From positions 18,340,754-18,404,753 of the forward strand of contig OZ316896.1 in NCBI GenBank assembly GCA_973895155.1: a DNA stretch of 64,000 bases. Reading direction: 5' to 3'. Below are positions 9,551 through 58,744 of the stretch, piece by piece. The notes beneath the pieces were generated by a model that made no database searches, was not told where the DNA came from, and saw only the letters and a program-made list of their open reading frames with translations. The translations under genes and the position numbers were made by a program. The stretch comes from Marsupella aquatica (lineage: Eukaryota; Plantae; Marchantiophyta). How positions within the stretch are numbered: the first letter of the stretch is position 1; each line of letters begins with the position of its first letter.

Positions 9551-9903
9551 ACAAACTTCAGAAGCGAGTTCAGAGCCCTGATAGGATATGAACTTTTGGC
9601 TCTCACGCTTGGGGACACGGTCTTAAATCGAATTGAAGTTAGCTTCTCGATGGACTGTCCACCTTAGCAAACTTCAGAAGTCTTAAATCGATTGAAGCTT
9701 AGCTTCTCGATTGACTGTCCACCTTAGCAAACTTCAGAAGTCTTAAATCGAATTGAAGCTTAGCTTCTCGATGGACTGTCCACCTTTTGTAAACTTCAGA
9801 AGCAAGTTCAGAGCACTGATAGGAAATGAACTTTTGGCTCTCTGATTTTGGGACACGGTCTTAAATCGAATTGACCATTAGCTTCTCGATTGACTGTCCA
9901 CCT
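9551..9903. repeat. Compound tandem repeat immediately upstream of the nitroreductase start
   Basis: gtcttaaatcgaattga..ttagcttctcgatggactgtccacct occurs 4 times (~60-bp period in the middle). A ~115-bp block at ~9551 recurs at ~9790. Confidence 0.9.
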
Positions 9904-21197: not shown

Positions 21198-21241
21198 TCG
21201 AGAGAGAGAGAGAGAAAGAGAGAGTGCGAGAGAGAGAGAGA
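21198..21241. repeat. (GA)n microsatellite in the probable 5' UTR of VIPP1
   Basis: GA run directly upstream of GCC ATG G at 21251. Confidence 0.9.
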
Positions 21242-21250
21242 ATTGCAGCC

Positions 21251-32186: not shown

Positions 32187-32309
32187 AAAGAGAGGTCCGA
32201 GCTAAAATACATTCTGAATGTCCTTCACCACTATTGAGTTTCTCAAACTCTATTCGCACAAGTGCGTAGTATCGTGAGCCTGCCAGAGAAGATTTCCAGC
32301 GAAGTAACT

Positions 32310-34619: not shown

Positions 34620-35454
34620 TGTTAAAATGTCGAACATATTTGAGACTAGACTGGACATCAGAAAACAGGCTGGCAAAATTTGACATTAAACAAAGATCCA
34701 AAAGGGATCGCAATAAATGCACAAGTTAGCCTTCAGTTGTACACATTGGTGCATGACATTAGTTTCCCGTCCAGTTTCTCTTTCAAAAAGAAGAAAAAAT
34801 ACTGCCCCGATGCTATCTATTGATGACCTAGTATTCCAAGTTCCTTACAAGATAGTGAAGGTGAGATCTAGAGTACTCTTTGCATTACTGCCCTCGGTGT
34901 CCAGATTTGGATCAGAGAATTATAAAAGTTCTCCCCAACTTAGACCTAGGAAAACAAAACAATGTATTAGTCTTTTAAGTGTATTATTTAGTGCCTCGTT
35001 TAAGAGGGCAATAATATGGAAAATAACAACACCTCAAGACTCAAGCTAAAGCATTGTTTTATTATGGCACACAACGCTTTGTTACCAGGGAGTGCCTACC
35101 TTAGAAAATTTGAACCTTATCGCCCTTCATGATTGTTCCTGTTTAATGTATGAAGAAACTTTAGAGTGCACCTTTTAGTTATCTGGTTAGGGCTAATAAA
35201 TAAACAAGAACCCTTAAAGGATGGGTCCAAGGCCTTAATTGTCTTTTCCAAAATTTCATGATTTTCCAAAATGCCATAAAACAAACAACACAAAAAATGA
35301 TCATCTATTTTAATTTTCCACACCTTGAGTTTCACACCACAATTAACACAATGCTTCAATATAAGTCTCAACATCAGAGTTTGGGCTCAAAGATTACCAA
35401 CAAATTAAATTTTATCATAAGATATCCTCTTTTACACTAGAAGAAAACAGGGCC

Positions 35455-36350
35455 CTTTATGACCAATCACCCAATGACAGAGATGAATAAATGACCAAAA
35501 GTTTTAATGACACAAAAAGAATGACGGGGGAATGACTGTCCACAATGACCAATAGACTGAAATGACAAAATGTTAATTTTTTCGTCATTTTGTATAATGT
35601 CTATAATGACTGATGCGACCAAAATGACCCAATTTCCCTAAATGGTCAATTTAGACACATGTATTAAATGACACAATTAATAACAACAATGATAAATCAG
35701 TGTTTAGCAACATTATAGTCACTCTGGACAATGACTGAAATGACCAAAAATCTATTTGCATCATTTTGGACAACGGTGATAAATGACAAAAAATGTATTA
35801 TCGTCATTTTAACCAACGGTGTTAAATGACAAAATTTAGGGTCAATCTGAAAATGAGAATATATCAGTGTTTACAACAACATATTGTCATTATGGACTTC
35901 TGCCATAAATGACTAACTCTAGGGTCAATCTTGAAATTAGGACATATTAGTGTTTACAAGAACATACCGTCATTATGGACTTCTCTCATAAATGACAAAA
36001 TTTAGGGTCAATCTGAAAATGAGAATATATCAGTGTTTACACAACATATTGTCATTATGGACTTCTGCCATAAATGACTAACTCTAGGGTCAATCTTGAA
36101 ATTAGGACATATCAGTGTTTACAAGAACATACCGTCATTATGGACTTCTCTCATAAATGACTAACTCCACAGTCAATCTTGAAATTAGGATATATCGGTG
36201 TTTTCAACAACATACTGTCATTATGGACTTGTCGCATAAATGACTAAATATAGGGCAATCTAAAAATCAGGATATATCAATGTTTACAATAACATACAGT
36301 CATTATGGACTTATTACATAAATGACTACTTATAGAGTCATTAAAGAACC
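35455..36350. repeat. Left subterminal repeats of the CACTA element (AATGAC motifs; ~80-bp tandem units)
   Basis: Dense AATGAC/GTCATT motifs and repeated gtcattatggacttct..cataaatgac units. Confidence 0.9.
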
Positions 36351-36409
36351 CAAGAGATATGAAGATTAAAATACTCAATAGTCATTCCAGACACCTATCA
36401 TAATTGTAG

Positions 36410-39400
36410 AGTCATACACCTTTGGAGTGATTTTCCAGAAGTGTCATCATATATGGATGCGCGCATACTATCGTATCCATGGGGCAAATGAAACCTTTTT
36501 GTCTCTCCAAGAAGTAGGGCAATACCAATGGAAGGTTGTCATGCTTTGTTGTAATTGTGTCATGTTTGTGCCGGTGTTTGGACGGGGAATATTTTAATTT
36601 GCAAATAAATGCATGCATACCATCACATCCAAAGGCAAATAAAAGTTGTTTTTTGGTTCTCCAAGAGGTAGTGCTGCCCCAATGGAATGGGCAGGGGAGT
36701 AATGCTTCTCAGTATGGTGTGGGTGCAGGTTTAGGGAAGAGGAATATTCCAACCTTGCAAGGAATCTAAAGCTAGCTCTCTTTGGAGGTACTAGGGCCTT
36801 TATTGGGTCATATGTGAGCAATGGCCCGTCATAAATGCCAATGACTAAAAGTAGGGTCATTAAAATTGTCATATGGAGAGTCATATCAGTCTAATGACTG
36901 GATTTGTGGTCATTTGAGGGGTCCCTTATGTAGTCATTAAGGAAAAGCACAAATGACCATTTTGGGGCTAGGGGCTTGAGGTGGGCCCTAGAGTGCCATG
37001 GGCCCCACATAGAGGTGAGAACCCCTCCACTAGGTGCGGGACACTATACTCATCATTGTCCAACCACTAGTTGCGACATAAACACTTTGGGCACATGTTT
37101 TTGTGTTTCCTTAAGGCATGATGCACCTTTGGGGAAATCACTCCCAAGTCGTACGACTTTGGAGTGATTTGCCAAAAGTGCAACCATGGATGTATACCAT
37201 CACATCCAAAGGCAAATAAAACCTGTTTTTTGGTTCTCCAAGAGGTAGTGCTGCACGAATGGAATGGGCAGGGGAGTCGTGCTTCTTAGCATGGTGTGGC
37301 TGCGGGATTAGGGTTTGGGAATATTCCAACCTTGCAAGGAATCTAAAGTTGGCTCTCTTTGGAGGTACTAGGGCCTTTATTGGGTCATATGTGAGCAATG
37401 GCCCGTCATAAATGCCAATTACTACAAGAAAGGTCATTAAAATGGTCACATTGGATGTCATATAAGTGGAATGACCTGAATTATTGTCATTTGAGGGGTC
37501 CCTCATGCAGTCATTAAGGAAAAGCACAAATGACCATTTTGGGGCTAGGGGTTGGAGGTGCGCCCTAGAGTGCCATGGGGCCCCACATAGAGGTGAGAAC
37601 CCCTCCACGAGGTGCGGGACACTATACTCATCATTGTCCAACCACTAGTTGCGACATAAACACTTTGGACACATGTTTTTGTGTTTCCTTAAGGCATGAT
37701 GCACCTTTGGGGAAATCACTCCCAAGTCGTACGACTTTGGAGTGATTTTCCAAAAGTGTTGCCATGCATGCACACCATCACATACAAAGGCAAATAAAAG
37801 TTGTTTTTGGGTTCTCCAAGAGGTGGTGTTGCACCAATGGAATGGGCAGGGGAGTCGTGCTTCCCTGTATGGTGTGGGTGTGGGTTTAGGGAAGAGGAAT
37901 ATTCCAACCTTGCAAGGAATCTAAAGCGGGCTCTCTTTGGAGGTACTAGGGCCTTTATTGGGTCATATGTGAGCAATGGACCGTCATAAATATCAATGAC
38001 TAAAAGCAAGGTCATTAAAACTGTCATATGGAGAGTCATATCAGTCTAATGACTGGATTTGTGGTCATTTGAGGGGTCCCTTATGCAGTCATTAAGGAAA
38101 AGTACAAATGACCAGTTTGGGGCTAGGGGCTGGAGGTGGGCCCTAGAGTGCCATGTGGCCCCACATAGAGGTGAGAACCCCTCCACTACGTGCGGGACAC
38201 TATACTCATCATTGTCCAACCACTAGTTGCGACATAAACACCTTGGACACATGTTTTTGCGTTTACTTAAGGCATGATGCACCTTTGGGGAAATCACTCC
38301 CAAGTCGTATGACTTTGGAGTGATTTGCCAAAAGTGTCACCATGGATGCATACCACTGTTCCAAACGCAAATGAAGCCCTTTTTTGTCTCTCCAAGAGGT
38401 AGCGCAACACCAATGGAATGGGTGTGGCAGTGGTGCTTCCCTCTATGATGTGTCTGATGTTTAAAGGTATTCGATTATTCCATTTTTGCAAGGAATGTAG
38501 AGCGGGCTCTCTCTGGCGGTACTAGGACCTTCTTTGGGTCATTTTTTAACAAAGTCATGTCATAAGTGCCAATGACCACAAGTAGGGTCATTGAATTGGT
38601 CATATGGGATGTCATATAATTCAAATGACTGGACTTGTTGTCATTTGAGGGGTCTCTAGTGCAGTCATTGAAGACAAGCATGAATGACCAATTTGGAGGT
38701 AAGGGCTGGAGGTGGGCCCTAGAGTGCCATGTGGCACCACATAGAGCTCGCAACCCCTTCACTAGGTGTCAAATACTATAATTACTATTCTCCAACCACT
38801 AGTTGCACCATTAGCAGTTGGAGCCATGTTTTTGTGTTTACTTAAGGGATGATATAATCTTGGGGAAATCACTCCCAAGTCGTACGACTTTGGAGTGATT
38901 TGCCAAAAGTGTCACCATTGATGCATACCATCCTATCTAAAGGAAATGAAGCCATTTTTTTTGTCTCTGCAAGAAGTAGTGCAAGGCTGTTGTCCTTCCA
39001 TGTAATTGTGTCATGTTTGTGCCAGTGTTTGGATGGGGAATATTCTATTAAATGAATAGTGATGGGGCACTCAAGAAGGTAGTGTAATCTTCATTGAGTC
39101 ATTTCTGAAAAAATTGGTGTCATAAATACCAATGACTACAAGTAGGGTCATTAAATCTGTCATATGGGCTGTCACATAAGTCAAATGACTGGATTTGTGG
39201 TCATTTGAGGGGTCCCTTGTGCAATCATTAAGCAGAAGCACAAATGACCAACTTGGGGCTGGGGGCTGGAGGTGGGCCCTAGAGTGCCATGGGGCCCCAC
39301 ATAGAGGTGAGAACCCCCTCCACTAGGTGCGGGACACTATACTCATCATCGTCCAACCACTAGTTGTGCCATGAACACTTTGGACACATGTTTTTGCATT

Positions 39401-40400
39401 TACTTAAGGCATGATGCACCTTGGGGAAATCACTCCCAAGTCATACAACTTTGGAGTGATTTGCCAAAAGTGTCACCATGGATGCATACCACCATATCCA
39501 AGCGCAAATGGAGCCATTTTTTGTCTCTCCAAGAAGTAGCGCAACACCAATGGAAGGTTGTCATCTTGTGATGTAATTGTGTCATGTTTGTGCCGGTGTT
39601 TGGATGGGGAATACTCCATTTTGCATATGAATAGTGTCGGGGCATTGTGAGTAGGTGTTGTAATCTTCATTGGGTCATTTTGGAGGAATAGTGTGTCATT
39701 AATGCCAAAGACTGCAGTAAGGGTCATTTTGGCAGTCCTTTTGGAAGTCATTTGTGCCAAATGACTCCATATGGGGTCATTATAGAGGTCCCTCATGGTG
39801 TCATTACGGACCATCAGAAATGACCCTTTTGGGTCTAGGAGCTTAAGGTGGCCCTAGTGTGCCATGGGGCTCTACATGAAGGTGGCAACCTCTCCACAAG
39901 GTGCGGGGTACTATACCCACTATTCTCCAACCACTAGTTGCACCATGAGCACTTTGGAGCCATGTTTTTGCAATTACTTAAGGGATGATGCAACCTTGGG
40001 GAAATCACTCCCAAGTCATACAACTTTGGAGTGATTTGCCAAAAGTGTCACCATGCATGCATACCATCCTAAGGCATGCATACAAAAATTGTTTTTGTCT
40101 CTCCAAGAGGTATATAGTGCAATACTAGTGGAAGACTATGTCCTTCTATATAACTATGTCATGTTTGTGCCGATATTTGGATTTTGGATATATTCTATTA
40201 AATTCCAAAGGAATTGTAAAGGGGCACTCCGAGAGGTAGTATACTCTTCATTGGGTCATTTTCACATAATGTGTGTCATTAATGTCAATGACTACAATAA
40301 GGGTCATTTTGGTAGTCAGTTGGAGGTCATTTGGAGCAATTGACTGCATATGTGGTCATTAGAGAGGTCCCTCATGGTGTGTCATTAATGAAAACACCTC
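36410..40400. repeat. Internal tandem array of ~561-578-bp units (about 7), each with a 36-bp palindrome
   Basis: aaatcactcccaagtcgtacgactttggagtgattt (or close variants) begins at 37135, 37713, 38291, 38866, 39427 and 40002 (spacings 578, 578, 575, 561, 575), with a partial copy near 36410. Confidence 0.95.
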
Positions 40401-43400
40401 AAATTAGGGTAATCTTGGTTGTCATACTAGAGGTCAGAAGTACCAAATGACTGGAAATGTGGTCTTTACAAAGGCTATTGGGGGGTTCTCTTTGGAGGTA
40501 CAAGGGAGTTCATTGGATCATTTGTGAATTAAATGGTGCTTCAATCTGAGGACTAAACGTGGGGTCACTCACGCTGTCATATTGGAAGCCATTAATGTTG
40601 GCATATTGGAGGTCATATAGTCATGGGAAGGCTCACTTGTTAATGCTTTGGTGTAATGCTCTCAAAAACTCTTAGACAACATAGCCTCATATGTAGTCTT
40701 CCCTTGGTCCAAAAGGACCTTTTATATCGCGGGCATGATTTTTTATATATAACATTGGTCCTTAACATTCTTGTTGGCACCTACACAAACAGCCATGACC
40801 TTATGGGGGGGTTGCGACATTATAAGTTATTAACCTTGCCTTCCCTACTTAGGACCTTATGGGGGCGTCCGGACCTTGTTATTACCCTATATAGTCGGTA
40901 TTTCCCTAGGGCCTTATGGGGGCGAGGGGGGGGGGTGGTTTACATTGTTATTAATCTAGTCTCAACTTCCCTAGGGCCTTATGGGGGGTCCAGACATATG
41001 AGAGATTGTCAGAATAGAACCTAATTCATGACCCACGTACAATATCCACCATCCCCATCTGGAGAAATACCTTACTTTTACGGGGTTTAGGCATCCAGCT
41101 TTAGGTTTTTCCTCCTCAAGTGTTCTCGCGTACCAACAGGAGCCCTTTTTCCTGAAAAAACATCGACGGAGAGGGCAATGCTCGATGTGCTCTTTTCTTG
41201 GCATGCCTTGTGTGCACATTGCAAGGGCTTAGGGTTGCGCAGCGTTGTGCATTGCCTCCACCAAGCTTCGACACTCTTCCGAGCACATTTGCTAGACTAG
41301 CACAGGGTGGAGTTGCGGGAGGGGAGGAGCTGCAACACTCTTCCGCGCACAGGTTGGAGTTGCCCCAGGAGCACAGGTTGGAGTTGCGGGAGGGGAGGAG
41401 TTGCGTGAGGTTGGAGGTGCGGAAGGGAAGAGCTGCAGAAGGAAGAGCCGGACACAATCAGAAACAGTCGAGCGACAAGCTGCGGGTCACGAGCTGTGGG
41501 TGAGGAGCTACGATCGACAACAAGCTGCGCAAGGTGGATGCGGAAGGCATTTGCGCACTGGGGCCCCGATCATCATGGAAGGCGATTGCTATGGAAGCTC
41601 GTGGAGGCAGTGAAAGCAGGGAGGAAATGATTCTTGCTGCGGAAGGTCGACGATAGCTTCTTGAAGAGGTTGTGGAGTTTGCGGAAGGGAGCCGGTTGTT
41701 TGTTTGGTCTCAACATTTGTTTCTTTAAGTGGGTGCGAGCTGCTTGCGGAAGGGGAGAGGTGACCTGATTGCGGACGGGGAGAAGGCAAGCTGCTTGCGG
41801 AAGGGGAGAGGTCGAGCAGCTGCTTGCGAAAGGGGAGAGGGCGACTCATTGCGGAAGCTGAGAGTGCAAGCTACTTGCGGAAGGCAGCAGAGCACAAGCT
41901 GCTACCTGCAAGTTGAGGCCTGCTAGCTTCCGCCTCAAAGGTATTGACCTTATTCCCATTGGCGCCCATGCTGTGATTTGCCTGGTTGCTCTGTGCTCTC
42001 CACTTCCGGCTCCACCCCAGCCTGGGACCTGCAATGTGTTGTGTTGGGACCTGTGTTGCTGTGTGTCAAAGCTCTCTGCTTATGTTTTTTCTCTATCTAT
42101 CCCTCTCCATTCGCTACATGTTCTCTGATCTTCTATTCTATTGCCATTTACTACTTGTTCTTTGAGTTTGCTGAGTTTGGTTGTCCACCTTCTCGCCCTC
42201 TGTAGCCTTGAGAGGATTGCTCAATTTGTATGTGACCGCTCCTGTTGCATGCACTTATCTGCACTTACTTTTCAGACAATTTCTACTTTAAAGGACGTCT
42301 CTCTTTATTGTATATATCTCTCCTTTTCCATTTAAGACGGAACTGTCTCCACTACTGCTAGTCTCCCGGTTGAGCTTCTTTATTGCCCATTACAATCTAT
42401 ATCAATTTTTTTCCCACTCAGGTTCTCTGATCTTCAATTCTATTGCCATTTGCTACATGTTCTTTGAGTTTGTTGAGTTTGGTTGTCCACCTTCTCGCCC
42501 TCTATAGCCTTTGCATCACAAGTGCCTGCATTTCCTTCCCTGTCCCATGCTAGCTCCACTGCGGCCTTCCACTGCTATCTATGTTGATTCCTTCCACTGC
42601 TACAAAATTCTGCTTTGCAATGCCATCCCAATGCTCATATGTCCCAGTAAAATTCGGGTAGACATAAGTATTAGGCGCAGAGTCTTCTCTCTCTGCTTGC
42701 CCAAGATCAGGGTTTACTGGTTCTAATTGCTAATTCAGTCCCCATTTAGAATGACCTAAGAAATTTAACTATCTTCGAGCTTTATTGTTTGTTTTGGCAA
42801 AATCTTCCCTTGCGGCCAGCAGCTGAGGCAGCATCCACGATGTCCGATACATTTTTCAAGACATAGGTAAGCTGGCTGGGGAATGCCTTTCTCCTCAATC
42901 TCAAGAGATGATTTTTCTGGAGTCTGCTCACGTATTGCTCTTGCTTGTCCAGAACTTGAACGGCTATTTACCACAACTAAATCAAGTGCCCGAGTTCTGA
43001 CCGAGTTGTCCTCTGTCTCTCTGCTGTTGATTTCTGATTGCTACTTGTTGGATTTGTCTGCTATGTTCAGTTCAGTTTGTTGTCTTGTTGTCGTCTGGCA
43101 ATTATTGCCAATTATTCTGACTGCGTGAAAGGCTGTTCTATTTAGTGCTGCCTAATTGAACATAAAAATATGCTATTAAGTTGATTGAGTTAGGCAAATC
43201 AGGATGCCATACCCTTGTGTTCAAAATTCTATATCTGGCAGTGTTTGTTGTGTTTGTTGTGTTCAAAATTCTATTGGCAGTGTCAACCTAGAAAGATAAC
43301 CTGATGTATCGCCAACCTTTTCAGTGTGCTGCCAAAGTCCCTGTAGATGCCACTCCTTCTCTGTTTTAAATGAGTAAACTCCTTTCCTCCATATTGAAAT

Positions 43401-44624
43401 GTCATCCTGGACCTAAGCTGCGAGGAACTGCGAGGTGAGTCGTGACAATCTTTGTGGTGCAAGGTGAGCTTGATCTCTTATTATTACAATGTAGTCCTTA
43501 GTTTTCCATTGTATGATGTTTTCCTTAGTCTGTCTATGTTCCTCAATGAAAATTTGGTTTCCTTACTCTTCTTTTGACATCCCTCTGTATCATAGCCTTT
43601 TCTTTTCTCTTTTTTTTACTGAAGAGAAGTGCAGGCATGTATGGTGAATCCTCACTTGATTCCAGCAGCGACTCTGTAGAATTTTGTCGCCAAAAAGTTT
43701 CAAAGTTTTGTGTGTGGTTTGCCAACTGCTGTGCCACCTCAGAGAATTCCTTAGTGGCTTTTGTACAAGCCTTGCTCTTCAACTATGGTAATTTACAGCT
43801 AATTGTCTGATGTTCACACAACATCCATACACAGCAATGAATACAACTCCATGAATACAGCCACATGATTTCCTTTGGTCTGCAAACTGGACGAAACTAA
43901 ACTAAACTCAGCTTGGTCAATTTTAAATTCTTCGTAAGGGTCTCTGACAGCAGCCCGGTATAGTCATTTGTGCACGAAGATAGAGTACGGTGCAGCTTTT
44001 GAAAAAGTGGGTGGACCAGCAGCTTGTTGAGAGTAAAGCAACTTATGGTTCTATAACAGATGTGTGCAGTAGCTTAAGATGTAGAAGGCACACAATAAAA
44101 CTTGATTTTTACAGATTTAAAAAAGGGCAGGGTGAGTGAGCACTGCATGTTGAACTCACAGGTCCGAATCTTGATTTGATTTCACTGCTAAAATTCGTAT
44201 CTCTTGCCTGAGTCCCAGTTTGCTGGAGTTTTGTTGCTCTTTGTGCTTTGTTGTGCACATTGTTGTGTTTGCTTTGTCCATTTTAAAACTTGAGAGCCAA
44301 ATGAATGCTTTGCTGAAACTCAATTGCTATTTGTTCTGTGTTGCCCTTACAGATTTTAAAAAGGCAGGGTGAGTGAGCACTGCTGTACAGCAAGCGAAGG
44401 CATACAGGTTGCAATATTTGTGATTGCTTCCAATCATAGGCCAAGGTTATTTGCGCTGCTCAGTCCTAAATGCTTTGCCATCTATAAAGCATTGGTTTAT
44501 GCTGCACCCTTGTGGTTACATGTCATATTTTATGCTGCACCCTCATTCTTTTGTGTCATGCTGCACCCTGTTATATATTCCTTCTTGTTTCACAATCTGA
44601 TGTAGGGTCTGAGTGTGCAGGACC

Positions 44625-45279
44625 ATGGCTCGCAATAAGCAGAAGGCCATGAATCGTTGCAGAGGTGAATCCTCTCAAGCACCTCAATTGTCCTTATATT
44701 CAGACATTGAGATTAACCAGAATAGTCCACATGTATGTGCGATTTGTGATGAGGGATCTCATTGTTTGTGATGGGCCTTGCCACCGACATTTCCATAAGA
44801 ATGTTTCCTGTCCTTTGGGTCAACAATGGCTATGCCCAACTATATCCCTCGCTGATGGCCATGTTGGAGAATGGCTTTGTGTTGATTGCAAGAATGAGGA
44901 ACATTCTTGCTTTAAGTGCCATGTGTCTGGAAAAATTGGTGAAGAGGTAAGAAAATGTCCAGACTCTCTCTGTGCCCGGTTTTACTGTCGGCAGTGTTTG
45001 GTTCCTGGCACAGCATCATGTGGACTCCATATTTGTCTTACTTGTGGACAGGGGCCCAATGATGGGGCTAATGGCTTTTTGGTTCAGTGCATGAGGTGTC
45101 CTAAGGCATGGCACAAGGACTGCCTGCTGTTTATCCAACAGAGGGGATTTGCCCATGATCGAACAATTTGGGATCACTCAGCGCATGGGCAGCCCAAGAA
45201 GGGGATGTTTTACTGTCCTGACCATGACATTGACCCTACACTAGGCACTCCTACTAGGAGCCACATATCTTGGATTTGA
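44625..45279 (+). CDS. Stand-alone EDM2/NSD-like multi-PHD finger protein inside the CACTA element (frameshift in the G-run at ~44753-44755)
   Basis: The ATG at 44625 (accATGg) reads MARNKQK...HVCAICDEG, then shifts into DLIVCDGPCHRHFH...WLCVDCKNEEHSCFKC...CPDSLCARFYC...CGLHICLTC...CMRCPKAWHKDCL...MFYCPDHDIDPTLGTPTRSHISW. Confidence 0.85.
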
Positions 45280-45879
45280 TTGAGGCTGGATGGAACACAA
45301 ACTTGAGATAGAGCTTTTTGATGGTTTCACGTGGACTTAAACAATTTTCAGAGTGCTAAAACATGTGGACTATTTATATGCAGTTTGATGAACTCCTCAT
45401 GTATACACACTCTACGACAGTGCATTGCGGATTGAGGCAATTAATTTTGAGAAATCAACTTTATTATCTTTTCCAGGGTAGGATTCCGATTTTGAAGCAT
45501 GTGCTTTGAGTGTGACTTTCCTCCATATTGATGTCTAAACTTCACTTGTAAATTTGTCACTGGTGTCACAAACGTTACTTATTCCAGACCTGTCTACTCA
45601 CATTCCTAATAGGCAAACAAATACTGGAAATGATGAAGGCACAGAGATTTACGTTCATAGTATCATTCTGATGACACTGTATGTGATGCTCTATTTGTAT
45701 GCAAGAAGGAGAAGGTGCCCTACTATAGTGGATTTGAGAAACTGGGCTCTGTGGGTTTGAGCAATTGGACTGTGGTTGGCATCGGTTGTACAACTGTGAC
45801 GGTAGGCCCAATTTTGTATGCATGTCACTCTGATTCAGTTTGAAAATCATAGTTTGAATACAATTTCAATCAAGCTAGC

Positions 45880-48800
45880 ATGGCACAATTGCCACAGAAT
45901 ATGTTAGGTGTGGGTAGAACTCCAAAGTTGCCGCTCTTCCATCCAGCTAGAGTACAACATCGTGATGATGCTTTGTGGGTTCGAGAACAGAAGGCCTGCC
46001 ACAAGAGTGGGGACCATAAGATGTACTGCCCTTGTGTGAACTGCAAAGGGAATTATAGGACTAATCGGAATACTGCTAGACTGCACCTTATTAAACATGG
46101 TCGGTACCCTGCATGTCGAGTGTGGGTGGGAGAGGGACAGGACTCTTCTGATGAAGAGTGGGGTGCTGACTACATGTCACAACATGGCCCTGAGGCATTG
46201 AGGGTAGCAAACCTTCAGCAGGCAACCTGTGCACAACAGCCAACTGTAGATGTTGAAGAACATTTATTTGTAGATGTTCCAGAGTATCCAACTGTGGATG
46301 TTCAAGAACATCCAACTATAGATGTCGAAGAACATATCAGGGCTCTACTGGAAGAAACGTTGCTGAGAACCAATGAAGAATCCCCTGAGCATGAGCTAGA
46401 TGATCAGGACCGTTTTGACTTGGATTTTGTACTTGGGGATGATGAGAGTGAAGGAGGTGCCCATCCTGTAAACCCCCTTGAAACCTCCAAAACTCTTGTG
46501 GAGACTGATCCTGCACAGTTATCTTTAGATGCAGCAATGCAACCTTTGTTCCCAGGCAGCAAAATAGATGTTGTGTCATTCATGTTGCTTCTGCTGAACA
46601 TCTGTCATGGCCATGGATTCTCAAACAAAGGAGTGAATGCAATGTTGTCTTTGATGGGGGAGCATGGTATGCCTACAGAGCATAATCTGCCCAAGAACTT
46701 ATATGCTGCAAAGCAGTTATTGAGAAAGCTTGGCTTGGATTATGAGAGAATCCCTGTCTGTGAGAAAGGTTGTATGCTCTTTAGGGGTGAGAATGCCAAG
46801 TTAGAAAACTGTTCAGTGTGTCAGCAGCCCAAGATGAAGAGAGTGGGGAATTCATTACAGGCAAGGAAGGTAGTGCGGTATTTCCCTATAATTCCCAGGT
46901 TGAAGAGATTGTATGCCACTGCTGGTACATCTAAACTCATGACTTGGCATCATGAGAATAGAAGCACAGACAACATGGTTCGGCACGCAGCAGATTCAAA
47001 GGCTTGGAAGCATGTGGATACAAATATTGATCGGGAATTTGCAGCTGAACCAAGGAATGTGCGATTTGGGTTGGCACTTGATGGGGTGAATCCCTTTGGG
47101 AATAATTCCACAGCTTGGTCTACCTGGCCAATACTGTTGTTGAATTACAATTTACCTCCTTGGCTTACCACCAAGAAGTTCTTTGTCATGCTAGCTATGC
47201 TGATTCCAGGACCTGATTCAGTAACAGAGGAACAGCTAGACATAATATTGGGCCCATTCTATGAGGAGTTGGAGCTGTTGTGGAAGAAAGGAGTGCCCTG
47301 CTTTGACAAATTGCCACGCCCAGGATTGTCTCAACACTTCAACCTTAGGGCTGTGCTATTGTGGACAATCAATGATTACCCTGCATATGGTTTAATATCT
47401 GGACAACAACACTCTGGATACAAAGGATGTGTCATCTGTGGGCCAGAATGTGTGGCACGTGGTTCTAAGCACTTGCAGAAATTAGAGTACAGTGGCCACC
47501 GTCGATGGTTAGCAGCAAGGCATCTTTTTCGTAGACCAGATAGTGCACAATACTTTGATGGTGCAATTGAGAGTCGACCTGCACCGTGTAGAATGACAAG
47601 CTCTGATAGAAAGAAGTGGGGAGACGAGACAACAGAATATTTGAAGAAGGGAGGAACCAAGGTTGAGGATGAGAAATGCCCCATAAAGGTGCATGGAGTG
47701 AAGAGGGCTACTGGTCTGTACAAGTTGCCCTATTGGAATGTAAGACTCCATACTACTACAATGAATTTCTGCAATCTCTTCATATGACTTTGAAATATAT
47801 TCTCTTCATATACTTCCTGTAGCCCAGATTTTGTAATTGTTGTATTCAATGCACTAATTTCTGAATTGTGTCCACTGCACAAACTACTGCCCAGTGATGC
47901 CAAAAGTTGTATTCAATGCCCTAATTTCTGAATTGTGTGTCCACTGCAGAAACTACTCATTAACCATTGTCTAGATCCCATGCACTGTGAGAAGAATCTT
48001 GCACACAACATTGTGCACACTATCATTGGGACCAAGGACACTCCTTCTGTGAGAGAAGACATGAAGCTCTTACAGGTGCGCCAACACCTATGGCTTGTAC
48101 CCAATCCAGCTCCCAAGCGTAAGGATGACAAATTGTTGATGCCCCCAGCCCCATATTGCCTGAGCAAGAAGGAAAGAACAAGGTTCTTGGAGGTTTTATT
48201 GACCTTGAAAGGGCCCACTGGTTTTTCAAGTTCTTTGGCAAAGTGTGTTACAAAATCCAAGAAACTCTCTGGGTTGAAATCACATGATTTCCACCAACTC
48301 ATGCAACAGATTCTCCCTCTGGCAACAATGGGATTACTTGATGAAGGGGTTCGCTTGGCCATAGCTGGGGTGAGCAATATCTATCGCCAGATCTGTACGA
48401 AGGTGTGGGACCCTTCAATGTATGAGAATTTGATGATGGATGTTGCATTCACTCTCTGCATTTTGGAAATCCATTTTCCACCAAGCTTCTTTGATGTCAT
48501 GACCCATTTAATGATTCACCTAGTGGAGGAATTAGACTTGTGTGGCCCAGTTACAGGCAGATGGATGTACCCAATAGAGAGGAACCTGAAGGTATTGAAG
48601 GGTTATGTACGAAACAAGGCACGTCCAGAGGCTTCTATGGCTGAAGGCTATGTATTAGATGAGTCTTTGGGATTTCTTTCTGAATACATGATTGATGCAA
48701 AGGGAGAGGGAAAACGAACCTGGGAGTTGGAGGAGGATGCTGGCGTTGCAGGCATTGTTTTGGAAGGGGCTGCAAAGGCGATAACTTTGGATTGGTCTGA

Positions 48801-49848
48801 AATGATGGTCATGCATCATTATATATTAGAGAATGAAGAGACAGTGGCTCCATGGTATAGGTACATAAACCTAGAAACTCTCCTATCCTTAGGCATATGG
48901 ATCATAATTATGTTTCCCCATTGTGTTTGTATATTCATGGTGGATCGTGCACTAATGTCTTCAGTGTTGTTGTTGCCATGCAGGATATATGATGCTACCA
49001 ATGAGACTGTTACCAAACGAAGAGTGGATTTCCGGAAGGAGTGGATGAGGAAGCCTGCCAATCGAAGAAAACCAGTGGAATTTCCCGTAGACTGCCAAGA
49101 ATTGCCACCTTTCAGGGAATGGTTTCAAACATTAGTCAATACCCATAATTTTGAGAAAGAGTCTGAGCGGTCATTACTATCTGCATACTCCACACCACCT
49201 AGTTTGAAGGCACGACTGTATAGGGCATGTAGAGCCTATGGGCACCATTGGAGGACTATTCCATCCTTGGGGTGTTTGAGTGATTGTGATTCTGGTGCTT
49301 TCAGCACTTTTGATTCTGGGATGGCTTCTACATTCACTGAGAAGCGAGTGGACAGGTCTGGTGCAACCATAGAAGAATCTGTACAGTATGTAGGGGCCTT
49401 GACAGATATCTTGGTACTGAATTATGGCAGCTTGAGGAAAGAGGTGATTCTTTTCAAAGGGAAATGGGCAGATCCATCATGGACTCCTAAATCCTCTGCC
49501 AGTATGAGGTATACCAAGTCTGGTCTTTGGCAGGTGAATTTCCATAGAGAACTGGGTGTGTCCAAGAAAATGGATTACGTTTTCCCAAAGCAAGTGGAGC
49601 AGGTTTTCTTCCACCCCAATGAGAAGGGGATAGCATGGAGAACAATCCTCCACAAAGAATCCAGGTCCACAAGGGTGTTAGGTGATTACACAGACGTTGA
49701 TTTCCATGCTACAATGGAAAACAATGCCAAATTACACATCGAATTGGCTAAGGCCTGTAGGTCCAGAGAAAATCCAGGACCAAGTACTGGTCCCAAACGA
49801 GGCAGAGATGCAGAGGGATCTGCAAGAAAGGGCAGGCCTAAGCAGTGA
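45880..49848 (+). CDS. CACTA TnpD/Tnp2 transposase. Exons 45880-47739, 47950-48860, 48984-49848
   Basis: YCPCVNC..HLIKHG, C-x2-GC..C-x2-C, YFPIIPRLKRLY, HAADSKAW, LALDGVNPF, TINDYPAY, LDPMHCEKN, GLKSHDFH, HLMIHL, WMYPIER, QVEQVFF. Phase-compatible GT-AG introns and no internal stops. Confidence 0.95.
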
Positions 49849-49946
49849 ATAGGTTTTAGCTAGGTGTGTGAAGTCCATAGATGGACTACATGTATGGACT
49901 ATTTATGAAATCAGACTAATGGTTTACCCATTTGTGCAGTTGGTGA

Positions 49947-52900
49947 ATGCAGCCTGTGAAAGGAAGATTGCAAGGGTTGTCACATTCTGTGAATCCTTAT
50001 GAGGAGGCCCGAAATCGGAACATAGAGCATAATGTCAGAATTATGCGTGATCTAGGACTGGGGCCAAACTGCAAGCTGATGTGTGTGTTGATATGTCTAT
50101 TGCAAATTTGATTCAGTAGATGGAGTTGTCAGGTTCATGTTCTGTTTTCATATTCCAGATTGGTCTCATACTAGTATGGATCCTGTACATAAGTACTAGT
50201 GTTACGGTGTTGTAGATTCATTTTGCATGTATGTTTGATCTGCATTGGTGTATGTTGATGATTGCTTTGTTCCTTAGAGGCCCAACCACACATGTACAAC
50301 GAGAGAGAGGAAAGCCTGCTTTGGTGAAAGGTACTTCAACTGAAACATTGCCAAAGAGGAGGAGCTCTAGACTATCAGAAGTTACCAAGGTGAACATGGC
50401 AGAGTTTGGTGATGATGGCTATGGTTCTCCTTCTGAGTATGACACTGAGGATTCTGACATTGGAGGGTCAGAACCAGAGAGTGCACAACAGGTAATGCTT
50501 GAACTTCATCATCCTAATAGGAAGGGATCCTTGTCCCTTTTTCAAATTATATGTTGATATGCTTACGTTGTCCATGATGTAGGTACAAAAACAAAATCGT
50601 GGTCCTAAGAAGACTGGGCCTGGTGGAGGTGGGCTAGTGAGATGTTGGAAAGACCCAGACACTGGACTCTTATATGAAAGTGAGTGGATTGTACTGTTCT
50701 ACTTTTCAGGTGTGTTTGGAAGTTGATATTCTACTTGGAAATGAAATTAATTGAAGTGCTTTGGTGTTGTGTGTTTGTTTAGTGGTTCCATCAGCATCTG
50801 AAGGCAGATCAGGTCAATCTGATGTACTACATTCCAGAGGATCTTCAGGTAATACACAATCTGCTCGTCATGCATATGCAAGTACATTTGCTCAACTTTT
50901 CAATCATGTACATATTTTTTGATTGAATGCATGTGTGAGCATTGCAGGAGGGGCCTCTGAGATGCGCAGGGAACGAAGGCATGCTAAGAAGCAGTTTGAT
51001 AATACTGCCAAACAACGAAGGGATTGCGGAGAGGTGCCCAAACACATTAAAGTGAGTATTGTACTTGTTTGTAGATTAAGACAAATCTGATCCTCTCTGT
51101 TGTTGTGTGTATAAAACCTGGACTCTGCATAAATTCCAGAGTTATGATCTGACATTGTCTGTGAAATGCAGATTTATGACAATGATATTGATGATTCTGA
51201 TGGCAACAAACAATACTGGCTGGAGGAACTTCGTGGCAACGTACTCAGAGTCTTTGATGTATCAAAGCCAAAATGGACTGATCATCCACAAGTTCATACA
51301 ACCACAGTGTGGAATAACATGGCAGCTGAGTGGGAGTATGTGGGTGGGGAATTTATTAACACCAAATTCCAGAGTCATTGTCGTGGCATATTGAAGAGAG
51401 AGCGCCATAAAATGCATGTTTATTGGAAGAAAGTTTGCAATGAGGATCCAACCAAACTTGGGCCATCTGGTGTTGATCCAAAGAAATGGGCAGCTTTGGT
51501 ATCTCATTTTACCAGTCCAGCATTGATATCTTTGAGTAAACAGATGACTGATAAAAGAGCACGAGTGCAAGATACCTCTCACTTTGGAAGGGGAGGGCAT
51601 GCTGCAGCAGCAAAGAGAATGGTAAATTGTCTATCATTTTCACTATCAATTCTGTCTTGTTTGTGAATCTTGATGAAAACAAACTCTGTGATTTCTCATT
51701 CATTGTGTGTTTGAACAGAAGCAGAAGAGAGGATCAAGCCCAGGTATATCTGACCTGAAAGAAAACCATGGTAGTCAGGGTTCATTGCCAAAGGTGACAA
51801 TGAGCCCATCATTGGCAAGTGCAGAAGGTCAGACTGGTAGTTTTGTGGGAGCAAAGGTGAGCCCATCATTGGCAAGTGGGGAGGGTAAAAGTGCTAGCTT
51901 ACTGGGGCAAGGAAACAGACATGGATCAGCTGTGAGTATTGTCATACCAATTTGATTTGTACATCATTCTCCATTTGACAGAGCCAGTTTTGTGTCGTTT
52001 GTAAGTTTGACAGTGAGACTGTTGTGTTGGTTTGTGGTTCATTTACAGACCCCACATTCAAAAGAAGAGATCACTGCCATTGGGGCTGTGAAATTGGATG
52101 TCGCTGAGTTGAAAGGCACTGTGAGGGAGTTGACAAACATGATGACTATGTGGATGGCACATCACCCCAGTAATGCACAAGTTCCAACAGTTGTGCCTAG
52201 TCACAGTAAGTTGACTACAACTACCAAACAAGGTAGTAGAAAGCGATCTCTTACTTTTTCAGGCGATAATGAAGGTAAAATTCTCTATCATGTATACACT
52301 GTCCATTCAATGTAATTATTGTGATGTGTATATGTCATTGCATGTTTATAATGTTCTTGCATGTTTTTAGTGTGATTATATGTTGCTGGTGTATACATGT
52401 TTGTTTATGCATTTCTTTTGTGTGTGTTTTATGACAGCATCTTTAGGGGAGCCTCCTGTGTCGCAGGGAAGACCAACTGACACAGCTAACAGTACTCTAA
52501 AGCAAACTGAATTGGAAGTGAACCTTTTGCCATCTAAGTTGCCCAAAGAAGCCATTTCAGATGTCTTTCAGTTGCCAGAGGATAAGTCGACTCAGTTGAC
52601 ACCAGATGTAACCCCAGAATCATCTGAGTTGCCAAAAGAAACTCCCATTCCAAGTGAACAGGATGACACTCCATCAACTAGAAAGGGAAAGAAGAAAAGG
52701 AAGAAAGGATCCTCAGCAAATGCATCACCTGCACAGAAGAAACCAATGCAGTCTCCTAACCCCGTTGCAAAGGTAAATGTGTGTTTGATTTGAGTGTTCT
52801 TCTATCTTTCAATTTTTGTTTATTGCATTTTTAACAAAATGTGTTGTTCACAGTTTGCAAGAGGAGATTTGGTGAAGATGAAGAGCGTTGTGGACAATTC

Positions 52901-53114
52901 CATGATAGTGGCAGAAGGTGAGGTGACAGGGCTGCCAGGAGAAGATAAGTTTCATTGTGCAGATTTTGAAAGCCCTTTCTTGCGAGTGCGTGTGATTGAA
53001 GTGTTTGTAGATGTGGCATTGCCATTTGCCAATTCAGGGGAGAACCAGTCTAAATTATCTGATGTGAAAGGGATGAATGCCCTATGGAACTCTAGATTGC
53101 TTAAGAAGCAATAG
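49947..53114 (+). CDS. CACTA TnpA-like multi-exon gene (exact exon structure not resolved)
   Basis: A chain of short open exons with GT/AG boundaries: YEEARNRNIEHN..LGL, PSGVDPKKWAALVSHF...NKRAR-like/HFGRGG, and a C-terminal VAEGEV...KFH...RVRV...LPF...ALW domain typical of EnSpm ORF2 products. Confidence 0.7.
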
Positions 53115-53464
53115 AAATAGCACTCTATCAAGAAACAATAGACATGATAGAATGACAACTCTGTTTTTCTATAAACATGCAGAGTGATTGGTATGTCAGG
53201 TTGTAACAATTGACAATCTAATATTATTGATGTCAATGTAATTTTGTTTCATAAATTTGCATTGAGTTCAATATTTACCATGAGACTTATGAAGGTATCT
53301 TGTATGAATATCAATTGGATTTGTGATATATATCGAATGTTTCTTTAAGTTTTCATTTAGCAACTCTATTGAATGGCTTTGTAATATATGATTTTTGATT
53401 GACATCAAGTTTTATCTATCATGATCACTTAAATTTGAATTTCTCCAAATCATTGAATACTTCG

Positions 53465-54198
53465 TCTGAATGACTGGCTTGAATGACTAAATGACTGGCT
53501 AGAATGACTGATGTAATGGTCATTATTCACAACTATCTTTGTGACCAATATGACTCAACTCTGGTCATTAAAGACATAGACTAAATGATTCAAAGAATGA
53601 CATATACAATGACCTTTCTCATGGTCATTATAAACAAGTCCACTATGACTCACTTTATGTCATTCAAGACATGTCATTAATGACTAATGCGTATCTTTAC
53701 GTGTCTTCTCCCAATTGAACCACGTGTCTCAATATGACTTGTTTATACTATAGTCATTTTGGACACGTCCAAAATGACCCAAATATATTGCCAAATGGTG
53801 AATCCTCTTTGAACCACGTGTCACTATTTGATTTGTTATATAATGTACGTCATTTTGGACAAGTCCAAAATGACCAATGTTATTTGTTTTTTTATTGCCA
53901 CGTGTCATTGTGTGATTGGGTATGGGGACCATCGACGGTCAACGGCAATTGACCGTCGATGGTGATTTGTGTCGTCATTTTGGACCGTTCAACATTTATG
54001 ACCATATCATAAAAATGGTCATTTAGGATAGTATGAAATGACCACATGTTTTTAGCGTCATTTGTCCAAAAGGACCGTGACCAAAATGTCCGTTGTGACG
54101 TGTCTGGAAAGACGAGAACAATTGCGTCATTGTTTTGTTAAAAAGACCTGATTAATAGTCATTGTTTCGGTCATAAAATACATTGTTTTCTACTAGTG
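53465..54198. repeat. Right subterminal repeats and palindromes of the CACTA element
   Basis: AATGAC/GTCATT clusters. Palindromes gtcattttggacacgtccaaaatgac and accatcgacggtcaa..ttgaccgtcgatggt. Confidence 0.88.
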
Positions 54199-57100
54199 TT
54201 AGAACAAAGTCACTAACAACATTAGAGATGAGAAGCCTTTGCCCACCACAAATCAACAATACTAGCCCCGACTACCCATTATTTGAACGTGAATAGCAAA
54301 GAGTACAATAAAGTGTTATCAAAATTAATATATTCTCTATTCATATTCTTTGAAGGTTAATGAAATGATAAAAAAACCCATCATTTTAACAGGCATTTTA
54401 ATAGTCATATATAATATACCATTCTCCTTTGTATGCAGATACCTCTTTCTATTCACATATGTTTGCGGTGGGGCCAATTATAACAAAAAAACTTGCATGT
54501 GTCAGTTTAAATAGACATGATTTTTTCCCATGCACGTGAGTCTTTCCATGCACATGATGGCCATGAGTTGCTGTCTAGAAGCTTCACTCTAGACCTAGGC
54601 TCTTAAAAGTAAACTTTACTTGGCGTTTTTATAGTAAGATATTGCTCCTGGCAACCTATGTTGAATTGCCAATTGCCCACCATATAACTAATAAAATAAC
54701 CCTACCATTTTTTGTTGCACATACGTGATGTGAAAATTTTGTGGAACAGGAACCTTGCACACACACACACCTATCCTCCACACCCCTTAGACGGGTGTGA
54801 CGAGCGGATTGAACCTTGGACTTAGTACACAGAGTTGAAAAAAACATTAAAGAAATCCATCTTAATTTTCCTGCGCATGCCCTTTTTGCAACAGGTCAAA
54901 AATTATTTGTGATCCAATTGCATTACTTACTATTGTAATTTTGGAAGATGAATGGTTAGGTCTAATCACTTTTTTTTTCTAACCCAAGAAGTAATGTAGC
55001 TCTAACCAAAGCCCTGACCAAATCAGATTAACTATCTATGCATTTCTATACACCTAACAATAGAACTTTGAACTAGGTAGGAATGGGAACAAGGCTTATA
55101 CATATAGACAGAGCAAATTAAATCCTACAACTAGGAGCATCGCACCCACCTGTTCTCAAATAGCTTAAATATCCAAGATGATAGCTAGCCAGAACATACC
55201 ATAACCCACAGAATGACCAAATTTTTCCTAAATTCTGAACGTCTTAGTTTGCTTTCCCTCATGGTTATCCCATTGAATTGAAACTGCTATTATCACCAAT
55301 TTGTACACGAAAGTTGGTACATAATGAATAGTAGCATAAGTCTCGAAATGATAAAAATTGATATTAAAATGATCATATCTTTTTTCGCATGTGGTGTCAG
55401 TGACACTTTTGTGAAAGTGACCCCAAAGAAGAAAACCAAACTGTATATAAATGACAAAAACATTTAAAGTTTCTTTCAGCCAGTCTTTCAGTCCATATGA
55501 AAATGTAAACTCCTGCCTATTATACTAGAATTACACTTGGAATTACATACACGAGCAAATATATTGTTGGAACTCTCAAATTATTCTCATTCTGTAGACT
55601 CAATTTGCAAATGAAAATAGAATAGATTGGCTCTTGTATTTCTTTCTATATCCCCGATCATATATCACTTGAACAATTTGTTGTTAGTCTTTGGTTCCTC
55701 TCTTCTCGATCAAGGTATATTGATGTTTGGTCTCAATCTCATACTTGAGTTTTTCTCCTAGACCAATGAACTTAAAATTGAAGCACTATAATTATTAACA
55801 AACCAAGAAGACCCAATTGGTGGTCTAAATAAAACACATTAAAGTTAGAGTATATAACAGCTTGGGAGGTTGTCGCAAGTCAGCATGAAATAGCACAGCA
55901 ATGTCTGAGCATGTGAATCATTCAAGCTAGTTGTGTCTGAATTATAGTAAGAGCTGTTAAAACTAGCAAACTAAAAATAACCCTGCAAGCAACTTGATAT
56001 TGATTCAACGTACGTACACTAACATTTCAAAATGGTTGGATAATGCATGCATATATGGAGCACATATATTCATTTTTGTGATAATAATTTTTGTGATGGT
56101 TTGTAATTACTTTTACAACTCAAATTTCTTATATAGTATTAATTATATAAGACTCTGCAACAATTTGTGTTTCTTAAAAAAACAGAAATATTTTTTGAGT
56201 GCACAAAAAATACAATATTTCCCATCACAGAGAACTGAAAAACTCTGTTTGATTTCAGCACAATTTAAAGTAATTTCTTACTATCCTATACTAAAACTTA
56301 TGCTCACAAAAAAGAATTACCATCATTCATTTTAAAGCCCACAAAGGCATGACTTTGTGGTAGCTCACTTGAGTAGAGACTGATAGGTCTTGGGTTCAAC
56401 TATTGTGGGCTGACTCTTCCCAACTATTGTGGGGTTTCACAAATTTCCCTTAAAAATTTTTAAAAAAAAAAATACACATTACACAATCTTTGTTCTATGT
56501 TACCCACATTGAAGTAACAATCTTTGATAGTTAGTTTGGAAATCAAGTCCTATATTACTATTTATAATCATATTATTTTTTGCATCATGATAAAATTTAA
56601 TATATTCTTACTTTTATTGTAATAGGATATTTTTTAATTACAAATTCATTGAAAACATGATGTGATTGTCGTATTTTAGAACTACAAATGCTACAACAAT
56701 TTTGTAGAATATTGTGTGAGAGATTCATTGCACTTTTTTGGTTAGTAGCCAATTCATGTCTCGGGCCTGAGGCTCTGACCCATTTTACAAAAGAGAATAA
56801 TAATGCTCAACTTTAGCAAACTGTTCAAACCTATATAGTTTAGCTACAGGTCTCTTCATCCATAATAATCTTTTGAAATTATCACTATATTCATTAAAAC
56901 TGTACTTTTAAAAGTCCATAAGATGAACCCTAAAGTTATTTTTGTTCAGGCCAAATTTCTATTAAAGCATTCCCAAAAGCTAATTTTTTTCAGCCCAAAT
57001 ATACACTTTTGAATGCCCAAAATTTTGTTTTTTTTCACCCAAATGTTTAATAATAACTTAAATCATATATTATAATTAATTTAAAAATTAGAGTAATTTA

Positions 57101-57349: not shown

Positions 57350-58406
57350 CTAATGATCAAGACAAAACTCATTTGAACAAGAAAGTCTGCTTCCTGATTT
57401 ATCATAGCGGATATCACGGTTGCAAGTATCTCTCGCATGGTGGTTCTTAAACTTATTGGTGAGATCCCTAGTTCTGAGAACTTTCCAAATAAAATGCCTT
57501 CTATTTTGTGTATGAGGACCAGAATAGTTGTCTCCAAGTATTACGTTTGCAGTTTCTTCGATCTCATCCATGGTCCACGTCTCCAGTGGTGGGTAATGCT
57601 GCACCTCGTTCTTTCCGTCCCAAGGAATCTCTTCAGGAGTCACATCCAAGATGGTTCCAAACTCCCTATGGATACAACGACAATCTCCCCACTTCTGTTC
57701 CAAAAGAGCATAGATGGCAGCATGATCCTCCTTGCTTGTTAATAAATTGAAAACAGACCACTTTGGATTGTTGACAGTGATATAATGTTGAACGCAGTAA
57801 GCCTTTCTCAATTTGCAAAGATACGGCCATAATATCTCGGGCAAAAAGGTGTCATTTGAAGCTGTGTGAGTAAATGGATTGGGAAACAATCCATTCACGT
57901 CATAATTCAAAAATGCCTTCAATGGAGAATCATCAATAAGAACTGTATTAGAAGCATCATATTTTTTCTGGAAAACGGTCCCAAATGGTTTGCAAATTCT
58001 TCAGAAGTAAATTGGCCTTCCCATCTGTTATATCTGGCCTTTGGATGCAACTATCAAAGGTATCTTCTTGAGTAAAGACAAACTTGAACTTCTGTCGCTC
58101 CTCCTTAGTGAAAATCAACTCCATTAAGTCCATTGTTTTTGGCCTCCTTGCACAGGTCCAAATTGTGACGTCAAAAACCATGAAAGCTGCATATAGAAAT
58201 TCGTGGAGGTATGGGCGCTCCACATACATGAAATTAAACCCTCCACGTCTCCCCCAGTGCACACCACGTAAACTTGTCTGATTTCGCCATGGTCCTGAGC
58301 TTCTGGTCTTAATGCAATCCCAACAAATCTTGTTAAGGTCAAGAACCAAGAGCTTTCGCCGGATCGGAGAGTGTAGTATTGGAGTGAATTCTGGAAACAT
58401 TAACAT
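57350..58406 (-). CDS. FCP1/SCP (NIF)-type HAD phosphatase-like protein, 1-nt frameshift in the A6 run at 57962-57967
   Basis: KLLVLDLNKIC, ERPYLHEFL, VTIWT, KNLQTIW. Removing one A continues as KYDASNTVLIDDSPLKAFLN into ORF 57350-57922. Confidence 0.8.
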
Positions 58407-58744
58407 AAGCCCTTAGTCAATGCGACTCAAAGTTTAAACAATTACTACGGAGGAAAACTCTCAAAATTTGAAATCAAACAAACTTTGTTATAGCATTTGA
58501 AGTAGAGAGGAACGACCTTGGGGCGACCCTCCTAGAAAAACATTAATTACATTCAATTGCCATTTTTTAGATCCAAAGTATACCTGGGTCAAACCCTTCC
58601 TCCAGAGCAACGCTTTCCGAGGGAATGCCAACAAAATCCTTTGAGGAAGGAGATTCTACGACGAAACTTTGGTCTGTAAAAAAGTATATTATTACAAAGA
58701 TAAAGCTTAGATTGTCATTAAAATACCAAGAACCAAAGAATGGG

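Follow-up and report, generated by a model that had tools for sequence, protein, structure and literature searches.

A CACTA transposon in the 64,000-nucleotide stretch analysed here (the window) carries a stand-alone gene for a cassette of PHD fingers of the type found in the plant protein EDM2, and the product of this gene begins with a conserved peptide resembling the N-terminal tail of histone H3. The reading preferred here, held at a probability of roughly 40%, is that this protein serves as a chromatin adaptor or decoy whose H3-like tail and EDM2-type cassette weaken silencing of the element. Transposable elements (TEs) are described as carrying anti-silencing proteins (PMC10398659, accessible part) or chromatin readers (PMC12477816, accessible part) elsewhere.

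The element spans 18,764 bp (~18.8 kb; window positions 35435-54198) and its parts are listed in Table 1. Its inverted repeats open with CACTAG and match end to end at 12 of 13 and 15 of 20 bases, and a TTA target-site duplication flanks both ends (35435 and 54198); this was the sole pair of ends with a target duplication among those matching at 10 or more of 13 bases. The motif AATGAC occurs 26-28 times per kb at both ends of the element and 0.6-0.7 times outside. TnpD was recognised by Pfam domains Transposase_21 (4e-66) and DUF4218 (2e-35), with Transpos_assoc and DUF4216 matching more weakly, and the multi-exon coding pieces of the putative TnpA-like gene (49940-53114) gave no Pfam match. 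The element thus possesses the hallmarks of CACTA (En/Spm) transposons, namely CACTA/G terminal inverted repeats, a 3-bp target-site duplication, subterminal repeats at both ends and TnpD domains. An earlier sequence-only reading had placed the PHD gene inside a fully bounded CACTA element, with TnpD ~600 bp downstream on the same strand; the terminal repeats, the TTA duplication and the open TnpD frames bear out the first point, and the TnpD start codon at 45880, 600 bp past the PHD gene, the second. Contigs from four public runs of three organisms cover 30 of 30 bins of the element, and diverged contigs begin to match at 44586, within the putative splice-acceptor stretch (44580..44605). Among the contigs listed from public runs, none bridges the PHD gene and TnpD. 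In the 578-bp array (36500-40450), CWG (0.42) and CpG (0.23) are both depleted, with CWG at 1.2-1.65 in the genes of the element, which suggests that the array has had a methylation history differing from that of the genes.

Table 1. Features of the CACTA element, in window coordinates
Feature	Position	Strand	Basis or remark
Left 3-bp target-site duplication, TTA	35432..35434	.	end search
Left terminal inverted repeat, starts CACTAG	35435..35464	+	end search
Left subterminal repeats	35465..36500	.	AATGAC 28 per kb vs 0.6 in flanks
83-bp tandem array in left subterminal region	35823-36328		
Tandem array, ~7 units of 560-578 bp	36500..40450	.	internal palindrome in each unit
GC-rich (55%), less CpG-depleted segment	41000..42050	+	candidate promoter or first exon
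Leader, two copies of a short acceptor-donor unit	44110..44385	+	putative, micro-exon-like
Pyrimidine tract and AG, 19 bases before PHD gene ATG	44580..44605	+	putative splice acceptor
PHD-cassette gene, EDM2/NSD-type, stand-alone, intronless	44625..45279	+	5-base deletion behind 44752 in this copy
H3-like N-terminal peptide	44628..44654	+	matches H3 positions 1, 2, 4, 5, 7 in this copy
TnpD transposase, open frames, intron about 47740-47949	45880..49848	+	Pfam
TnpA-like multi-exon gene	49940..53114	+	putative, from position; coding pieces
Right subterminal repeats	53300..54168	.	AATGAC 26 per kb
Right terminal inverted repeat	54169..54198	-	end search
Right target-site duplication, TTA	54199..54201	.	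end search

Several other genes were identified in the window. An intronless GH16 endo-1,3-beta-glucanase gene with a signal-peptide-like start lies at 2417-3394 (+; best PDB matches E 1.6e-73 and 5.6e-65); it looks microbial in type and may possibly have been acquired horizontally. An intronless ORF of the nitroreductase family (8866-9663, -; Pfam 3e-26), not CpG-depleted, also looks microbial in type. The tyrosine-recombinase-like ORF at 11048-12417 (-; integrase phrog_1 9e-7, weak DUF3504), split over two frames, is probably a Crypton-like element. A PspA/IM30 (VIPP1-like) gene lies in one uninterrupted ORF (20972-22393, +) and has a long N-terminus resembling a transit peptide, and a host 2-oxoglutarate dioxygenase gene of several exons (32238-34619, +) ends ~0.8 kb before the left end of the CACTA element. 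The run of long ORFs at 57350-62920 (-), whose sole family match is a NIF/HAD phosphatase-like pair at 57350-58412, is possibly another large mobile element with cargo; a stretch near 59700, with no database match, we take to resemble methyltransferase motif I.

An in-frame stop lies four codons before the start codon of the PHD gene (44625), with no ATG of that frame in between. Frame 1 runs from the start codon to CAICDEG, and frame 2 then continues with DLIVCDG...YCPDHDIDPTLGTPTRSHISWI to the stop at 45279. The frame-2 part matches Pfam PHD_NSD (5e-8), PHDvar_NSD (2e-7) and PHD, and the NSD-type PHD cassette (PHD-1st_NSD, PHD_NSD, PHDvar_NSD) is present in the protein and its family. All Cys/His motifs quoted in the sequence-only reading were found, in the order claimed. 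That reading had described an intronless gene of ~218 residues, split by one shift in a G-run: intronless it is, the open form in the family has 219 codons, and the break is instead a deletion of 5 bases between short direct repeats. A homopolymer sequencing slip is ruled out as its cause, the difference being 5 bases. The description as a triple PHD like that of EDM2 holds for a cassette of three modules but not for EDM2 itself, to which two and a half atypical PHDs are attributed (PMC7529245, accessible part).

Contigs from the public runs show the break to be peculiar to this copy. At position 44753, where a check of reads had been proposed, X1 and X5 contigs keep the frame open: 5 extra bases are present behind 44752 in both X1 contigs covering the site and in the one X5 contig scored there. 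The whole gene is spanned, with the 5 extra bases and 4 substitutions, by an X1 contig of 1204 nt at depth 701; run X3 has three contigs with 5 extra bases at 44752 (depth 119 of 18,122) and two more clipped there, and run X9 yielded one 62-base partial match to the gene. Since the X1 and X5 contigs carry 5 more bases, the family allele is open, and this copy has been broken by a short deletion or misassembled; the ORF is accordingly retained beyond this copy. The diverged X1 contigs have depths of 21-25, which suggests, although depth does not measure copy number, tens of near-identical copies. Contig depth cannot rank genes, so that the differing depths of the PHD gene and TnpD in X3 and X5 were set aside.

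About 20 stand-alone relatives of ~220 residues were found. Three have 85, 71 and 53% identity to the protein, five at 41-45% were the top five of the 150 matches listed, and eight more came from further search. Over 18 aligned family rows the median identity is 42%, and nearly all zinc ligands are kept in 15-18 rows. Family-specific derived characters, present in 16-18 of the 18 rows, include Gln and His before PHD1 and Cys in place of His in PHD2 (17/18); the PHD2 linker has 7 residues, compared with mostly 25-28 (about 26) in EDM2. The acidic stretch before PHD1 has been lost, net acidic charge being -2 to +1 in 16 family rows versus +3 to +6 in 21 EDM2 rows. A scan with alignment A3 returned 3 of 152 candidates from metagenomes, of which L001 and L002 are intronless, broken family members and L003 was rejected as a 23-residue match at chance level; none of 52 candidate stretches in viral contigs and none of 31 in prokaryote genomes were family members. 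Matches from a feature-based Atlas search were all below 0.9 and all PHD/NSD-like. Pieces of TnpD and TnpA found nothing below E 0.1 by tblastn against the short contigs L001 and L002; the CACTA context was observed for the family of this copy, and the distant members are presumed to be CACTA-borne as well. Broken or degenerate members comprise this copy, L001, L002, P0008 and several database rows, and some are to be expected in every family of TE genes.

The substitutions separating the contigs point to selection on the protein. Of 26 coding substitutions, 15 count as synonymous if each is read alone and 16 if a pair of changes sharing a codon is combined, where a synonymous share of 21-28% would be expected (p from 1e-5 to 0.002). 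The corresponding dN/dS, from these 26 contig variants pooled over three runs and without a transposase control, is about 0.17-0.29; the neutral decay (dN/dS near 1) that the sequence-only reading had set against its own proposal was not seen. Between the major X1 sequence and X5, 8 of 12 substitutions are synonymous. The PHD gene has a CpG observed/expected of 0.25 and both parts of TnpD have 0.23; the value is 0.34-0.35 for the coding parts of L001 and L002, and two host genes of the window reach 0.83-0.90. Because its CpG depletion equals that of TnpD, the PHD gene has resided for long in methylated DNA, and the synonymous excess together with this depletion marks it as an old cargo under purifying selection, in an element with open transposase frames. 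It does not resemble the recent, neutrally decaying host fragment of a Pack-CACTA element in dN/dS, in CpG content or in its ~40% identity to host proteins.

The best named matches are proteins of Marchantia, Riccia and Calypogeia, which makes a non-seed land plant the probable host; identity to the best-scoring host proteins is about 36-42%. In a tree of 61 rows, all 16 family rows formed one clade (100/100) at the end of a long stem; its sister group was the EDM2-type proteins of land plants (95/82), and SET/NSD proteins stood apart (99/93). The tree omits P0158, P0021, P0009, P0145, P0151, P0138 and P0130 (near-duplicates, partial or poorly aligned) as well as P0038, P0044, P0091 and P0126 (start pattern absent). 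As alternative partners of the family, liverwort EDM2-like paralogs (p 0.42) and the NSD/SET side (p 0.20) both withstood approximately unbiased (AU) tests. Discrete characters favour placing the cassette with the EDM2 family. The terminal motif YCxxH...TP..HI of the protein occurs in 56 of 65 methyltransferase-bearing, 0 of 10 SET-bearing and 31 of 75 other hits, in agreement with the specific similarity to EDM2 PHDs claimed from the sequence alone; IW.H is common to the family and 5 of 6 liverwort paralogs and is found in 1 of 21 other EDM2 rows. For each of the 19 rows tested, HMMs of EDM2-type groups gave scores above or near that of the SET-group HMM, which the liverwort-paralog HMM exceeded in 19 of 19.

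With plant EDM2 and EDM2-like proteins (Arabidopsis EDM2; Marchantia MPTK1_2g00350) the TE-borne protein shares the three-module NSD-type cassette and the terminal motif. It differs from them in being intronless and only ~220 residues long, in its H3-like tail, in the loss of the acidic stretch before PHD1 and in its altered PHD2. The rest of EDM2 is absent, as had been noted: DNMT1-RFD, found in seed-plant EDM2 rows, had no match in family rows, where 220 residues leave no room for it, and the methyltransferase-like (ELP) C-terminal domain is missing, family proteins ending 3-12 residues past the cassette. Liverwort paralogs (MPTK1_1g03210, MPTK1_4g03050, R1sor_003797) likewise end just past the cassette and have AWH and IW.H in common with the family. 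One of these, P0019 (MPTK1_4g03050), is a 280-residue EDM2-like cassette protein annotated in the host and belonging to the liverwort paralog clade; a basic stretch of 7 residues in it recurs in family member P0165. The protein is best described, on sequence grounds, as having an EDM2-like cassette without being an EDM2 ortholog. Of the captured EDM2 reader proposed earlier, the stand-alone EDM2-type cassette is supported and the capture from EDM2 proper is not, the AU tests rejecting neither a liverwort paralog nor the NSD/SET side as sister.

According to the accessible part of PMC7472560, EDM2 binds tails containing H3K9me2, joins ASI1-AIPP1 and promotes full-length transcripts across heterochromatin. 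Because the acidic patch and the RFD and methyltransferase-like domains are absent, neither EDM2-like reading of H3K9me2 nor recruitment of the ASI1-AIPP1-EDM2 complex can be assumed for the TE-borne protein, and its PHD2, with Cys for His and a linker ~20 residues shorter, likewise speaks against taking H3K9me2 reading for granted. An AF2 model of family protein P0001 from a 49-row alignment (pLDDT 84.7, pTM 0.79), which supersedes an earlier one from 14 rows (pLDDT 69), has residues 28-225 folded and residues 1-27 at pLDDT below 50; a folded cassette behind a disordered tail is thus predicted. The closest solved folds were PHD-C5HCH tandems of NSD proteins (Z 5.6-5.9, rmsd 2.6-4.7, 83-87 residues aligned) and PZP domains, a likeness between a model and known structures that would fix neither ligand nor mark. 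Prediction of a complex between residues 2-31 and 32-225 of P0001, with the alignment not used, scored 0.02. Searches of the PDB found no plant structure for the EDM2 PHD cassette, for which the family protein, small and predicted to fold well, offers a stand-in.

The sequence-only reading overlooked the H3-tail-like N-terminus, whose conservation shifts the likely mechanism towards mimicry. The pattern [AS]-R-x-K-x-x-A-x-K corresponds to H3 positions 1, 2, 4, 7 and 9. Its first part, [AS]R.K, occurs in 15 of 20 N-terminal segments, with 0.85 expected from composition-keeping shuffles (P0007 and P0164, with fewer than 25 residues before PHD1, were not counted); family rows are related, so that such counts are not independent events. 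At positions beyond the search motif, Ala7 is found in 9 and Lys9 in 8 of the 15 rows, and in nine rows below 60% identity H3 positions 5-10 are matched 15 times, where shuffles give 4.2 (0 of 20,000). Thr6 and Ser10 of H3 match in no row and Arg8 in 2 of 15. Compared with the H3 peptide given in the accessible part of PMC8166343, P0001 matches at 7 of the first 9 residues and this copy at 5, its position 9 being Asn. The same source defines H3 tail mimics (H3TMs) by iM-Z-R-X-K, a pattern (iM-Z1-R2-X3-K4) that the start of this copy fits. The motif follows a Met directly, as MAR.K, in 7 of 22 rows (this copy and six others; the database protein P0083 has this Met at an internal position), and none of 130 long hits begins so. 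Of the 15 motif rows, 8 have [AS]R.K 3-8 residues behind the nearest Met, so that the end would not be free, and the motif is absent from P0002 (the 71% relative), P0003 (53%), P0006, P0166 and P0167.

On the preferred reading, in which the protein is an adaptor or decoy, the PHD gene would be spliced from the element's own leader, and removal of the initiator Met would leave a free A-R-x-K end. The cassette would hold the protein on chromatin or on a partner, and the tail could then engage host readers, writers or erasers of the H3 tail and compete with real H3K4/K9 sites at the element. A more specific form of this reading is doubtful, though worth stating: an old CACTA lineage in non-seed plants may have joined an H3-tail mimic (K4, K9) to a host EDM2-family reader module, diverting host H3-tail readers or methyltransferases, which would amount to anti-silencing by histone mimicry in a DNA transposon. 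Such anti-silencing has so far, to our knowledge, been met in viruses and host proteins.

It is unlikely that the protein is instead an insertion-targeting or tethering factor, whose cassette reads the chromatin state and guides TnpD/TnpA there in the manner of Gypsy integrase chromodomains. The PHD gene does adjoin TnpD on the same strand behind a common leader, separate transposase-binding accessory genes are reported in CACTA, Harbinger and MULE elements (PMC12973397, accessible part), and TE-borne readers have been linked to targeted insertion (PMC12477816, accessible part). However, no transposase-binding domain is evident and the conserved H3-like tail would be left unexplained; the position of this copy, close downstream of the dioxygenase gene, says little.

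That the tail is a self-ligand, docking on its own or a partner's PHD to switch the protein by auto-inhibition or oligomerisation, as a legacy of the host EDM2 family, is rather improbable. Such a regulated reader would aid full-length TnpD/TnpA transcripts, the element requiring long spliced read-through and EDM2 promoting transcripts of this kind in heterochromatin (PMC7472560, accessible part). A MAR start is seen in twelve of the 130 long hits, and 11 of these belong to the EDM2 family, in the groups designated here as liverwort, other non-seed or algal; an N-terminal AR may thus be of long standing in the EDM2 family, and it had previously gone unnoticed in non-seed-plant EDM2 proteins. 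Against the switch, the host starts are MAR[TVA], without Lys4, and the TE-borne family lacks the RFD and methyltransferase-like domains and has lost the acidic stretch before PHD1. MAR[TVA] followed by a short extra segment was observed in P0010, P0011, P0012, P0017, P0025, P0027, P0037, P0038 and P0063, which are EDM2-family proteins of liverwort, other non-seed or algal type; the seed-plant-type EDM2 rows shown have mostly an acidic run at the start.

Quite improbable is an N-terminus that is an ordinary basic arm for nuclear localisation or DNA binding, H3-like by composition, in front of a zinc-finger module with a non-histone partner. The tail is indeed basic (5-8 K/R in 20 residues), basic patches precede the cassette in liverwort paralogs, as in the stretch shared by P0019 and P0165, invariant Gln and His replace acidic residues before PHD1, and the motif is missing in 5 of 20 rows; yet shuffles that keep this very composition fall well short of the observed matches, both for [AS]R.K and for positions 5-10, and Ala at positions 1 and 7 would be unexpected in a localisation signal. 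A neutral passenger of Pack-CACTA type, functionless for the element, is largely refuted in spite of the broken copies, considering the synonymous excess, the zinc ligands kept at 32-45% divergence, the low identity to host proteins, the family-specific derived characters and the TE-like CpG depletion.

If true, the adaptor or decoy reading would add a new anti-silencing route, by a selected TE protein with H3-like tail and EDM2-type cassette, and it is directly testable with short peptides and a protein of 220 residues. Few anti-silencing proteins of plant TEs are documented, VANC and a rice CACTA microRNA being the cases named in the accessible part of PMC12973397. No CACTA element with an H3 mimic or an EDM2-type PHD gene was described in the literature searched, mostly without subscription papers and supplements; the main texts of PMC12973397, PMC13547354, PMC13317346 and PMC12477816 do not contain the word PHD, and the domains of active TIR elements given in Table S6 of PMC12973397 may be relevant to how new the gene is.

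Among known systems, VANC of the VANDAL (MuDR) elements is, like the present protein, an accessory protein encoded by a TE. The targets of VANC are tandem repeats in the non-coding part of its element (PMC10398659, accessible part), and the CACTA element has fast-evolving-looking ones too. VANC, however, belongs to another superfamily and fold and binds the DNA of its own element sequence-specifically, whereas the protein described here has fingers of histone-reader type and an H3-like tail, and the likeness would be one of concept only. The chromodomain and Tudor readers of Gypsy integrases (PMC12477816, accessible part) also place a reader-type domain on a mobile element; these are fused to the integrase of a retroelement, whereas the PHD gene is separate and lies in a cut-and-paste DNA transposon. 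Pack-CACTA capture (PMC13317346, accessible part) similarly leaves host-derived sequence within CACTA ends, but in the present element the TnpD frames are open and the cargo is old, diverged, composition-matched and under selection. Finally, the H3TMs VRK1, PCLAF, HIRIP3 and others (PMC8166343, accessible part) start with iM-A-R-X-K as do this copy and the six further rows; they are host proteins, whereas the putative mimic here is encoded by a TE, forms one protein with a PHD cassette and in many rows extends to Ala7 and Lys9.
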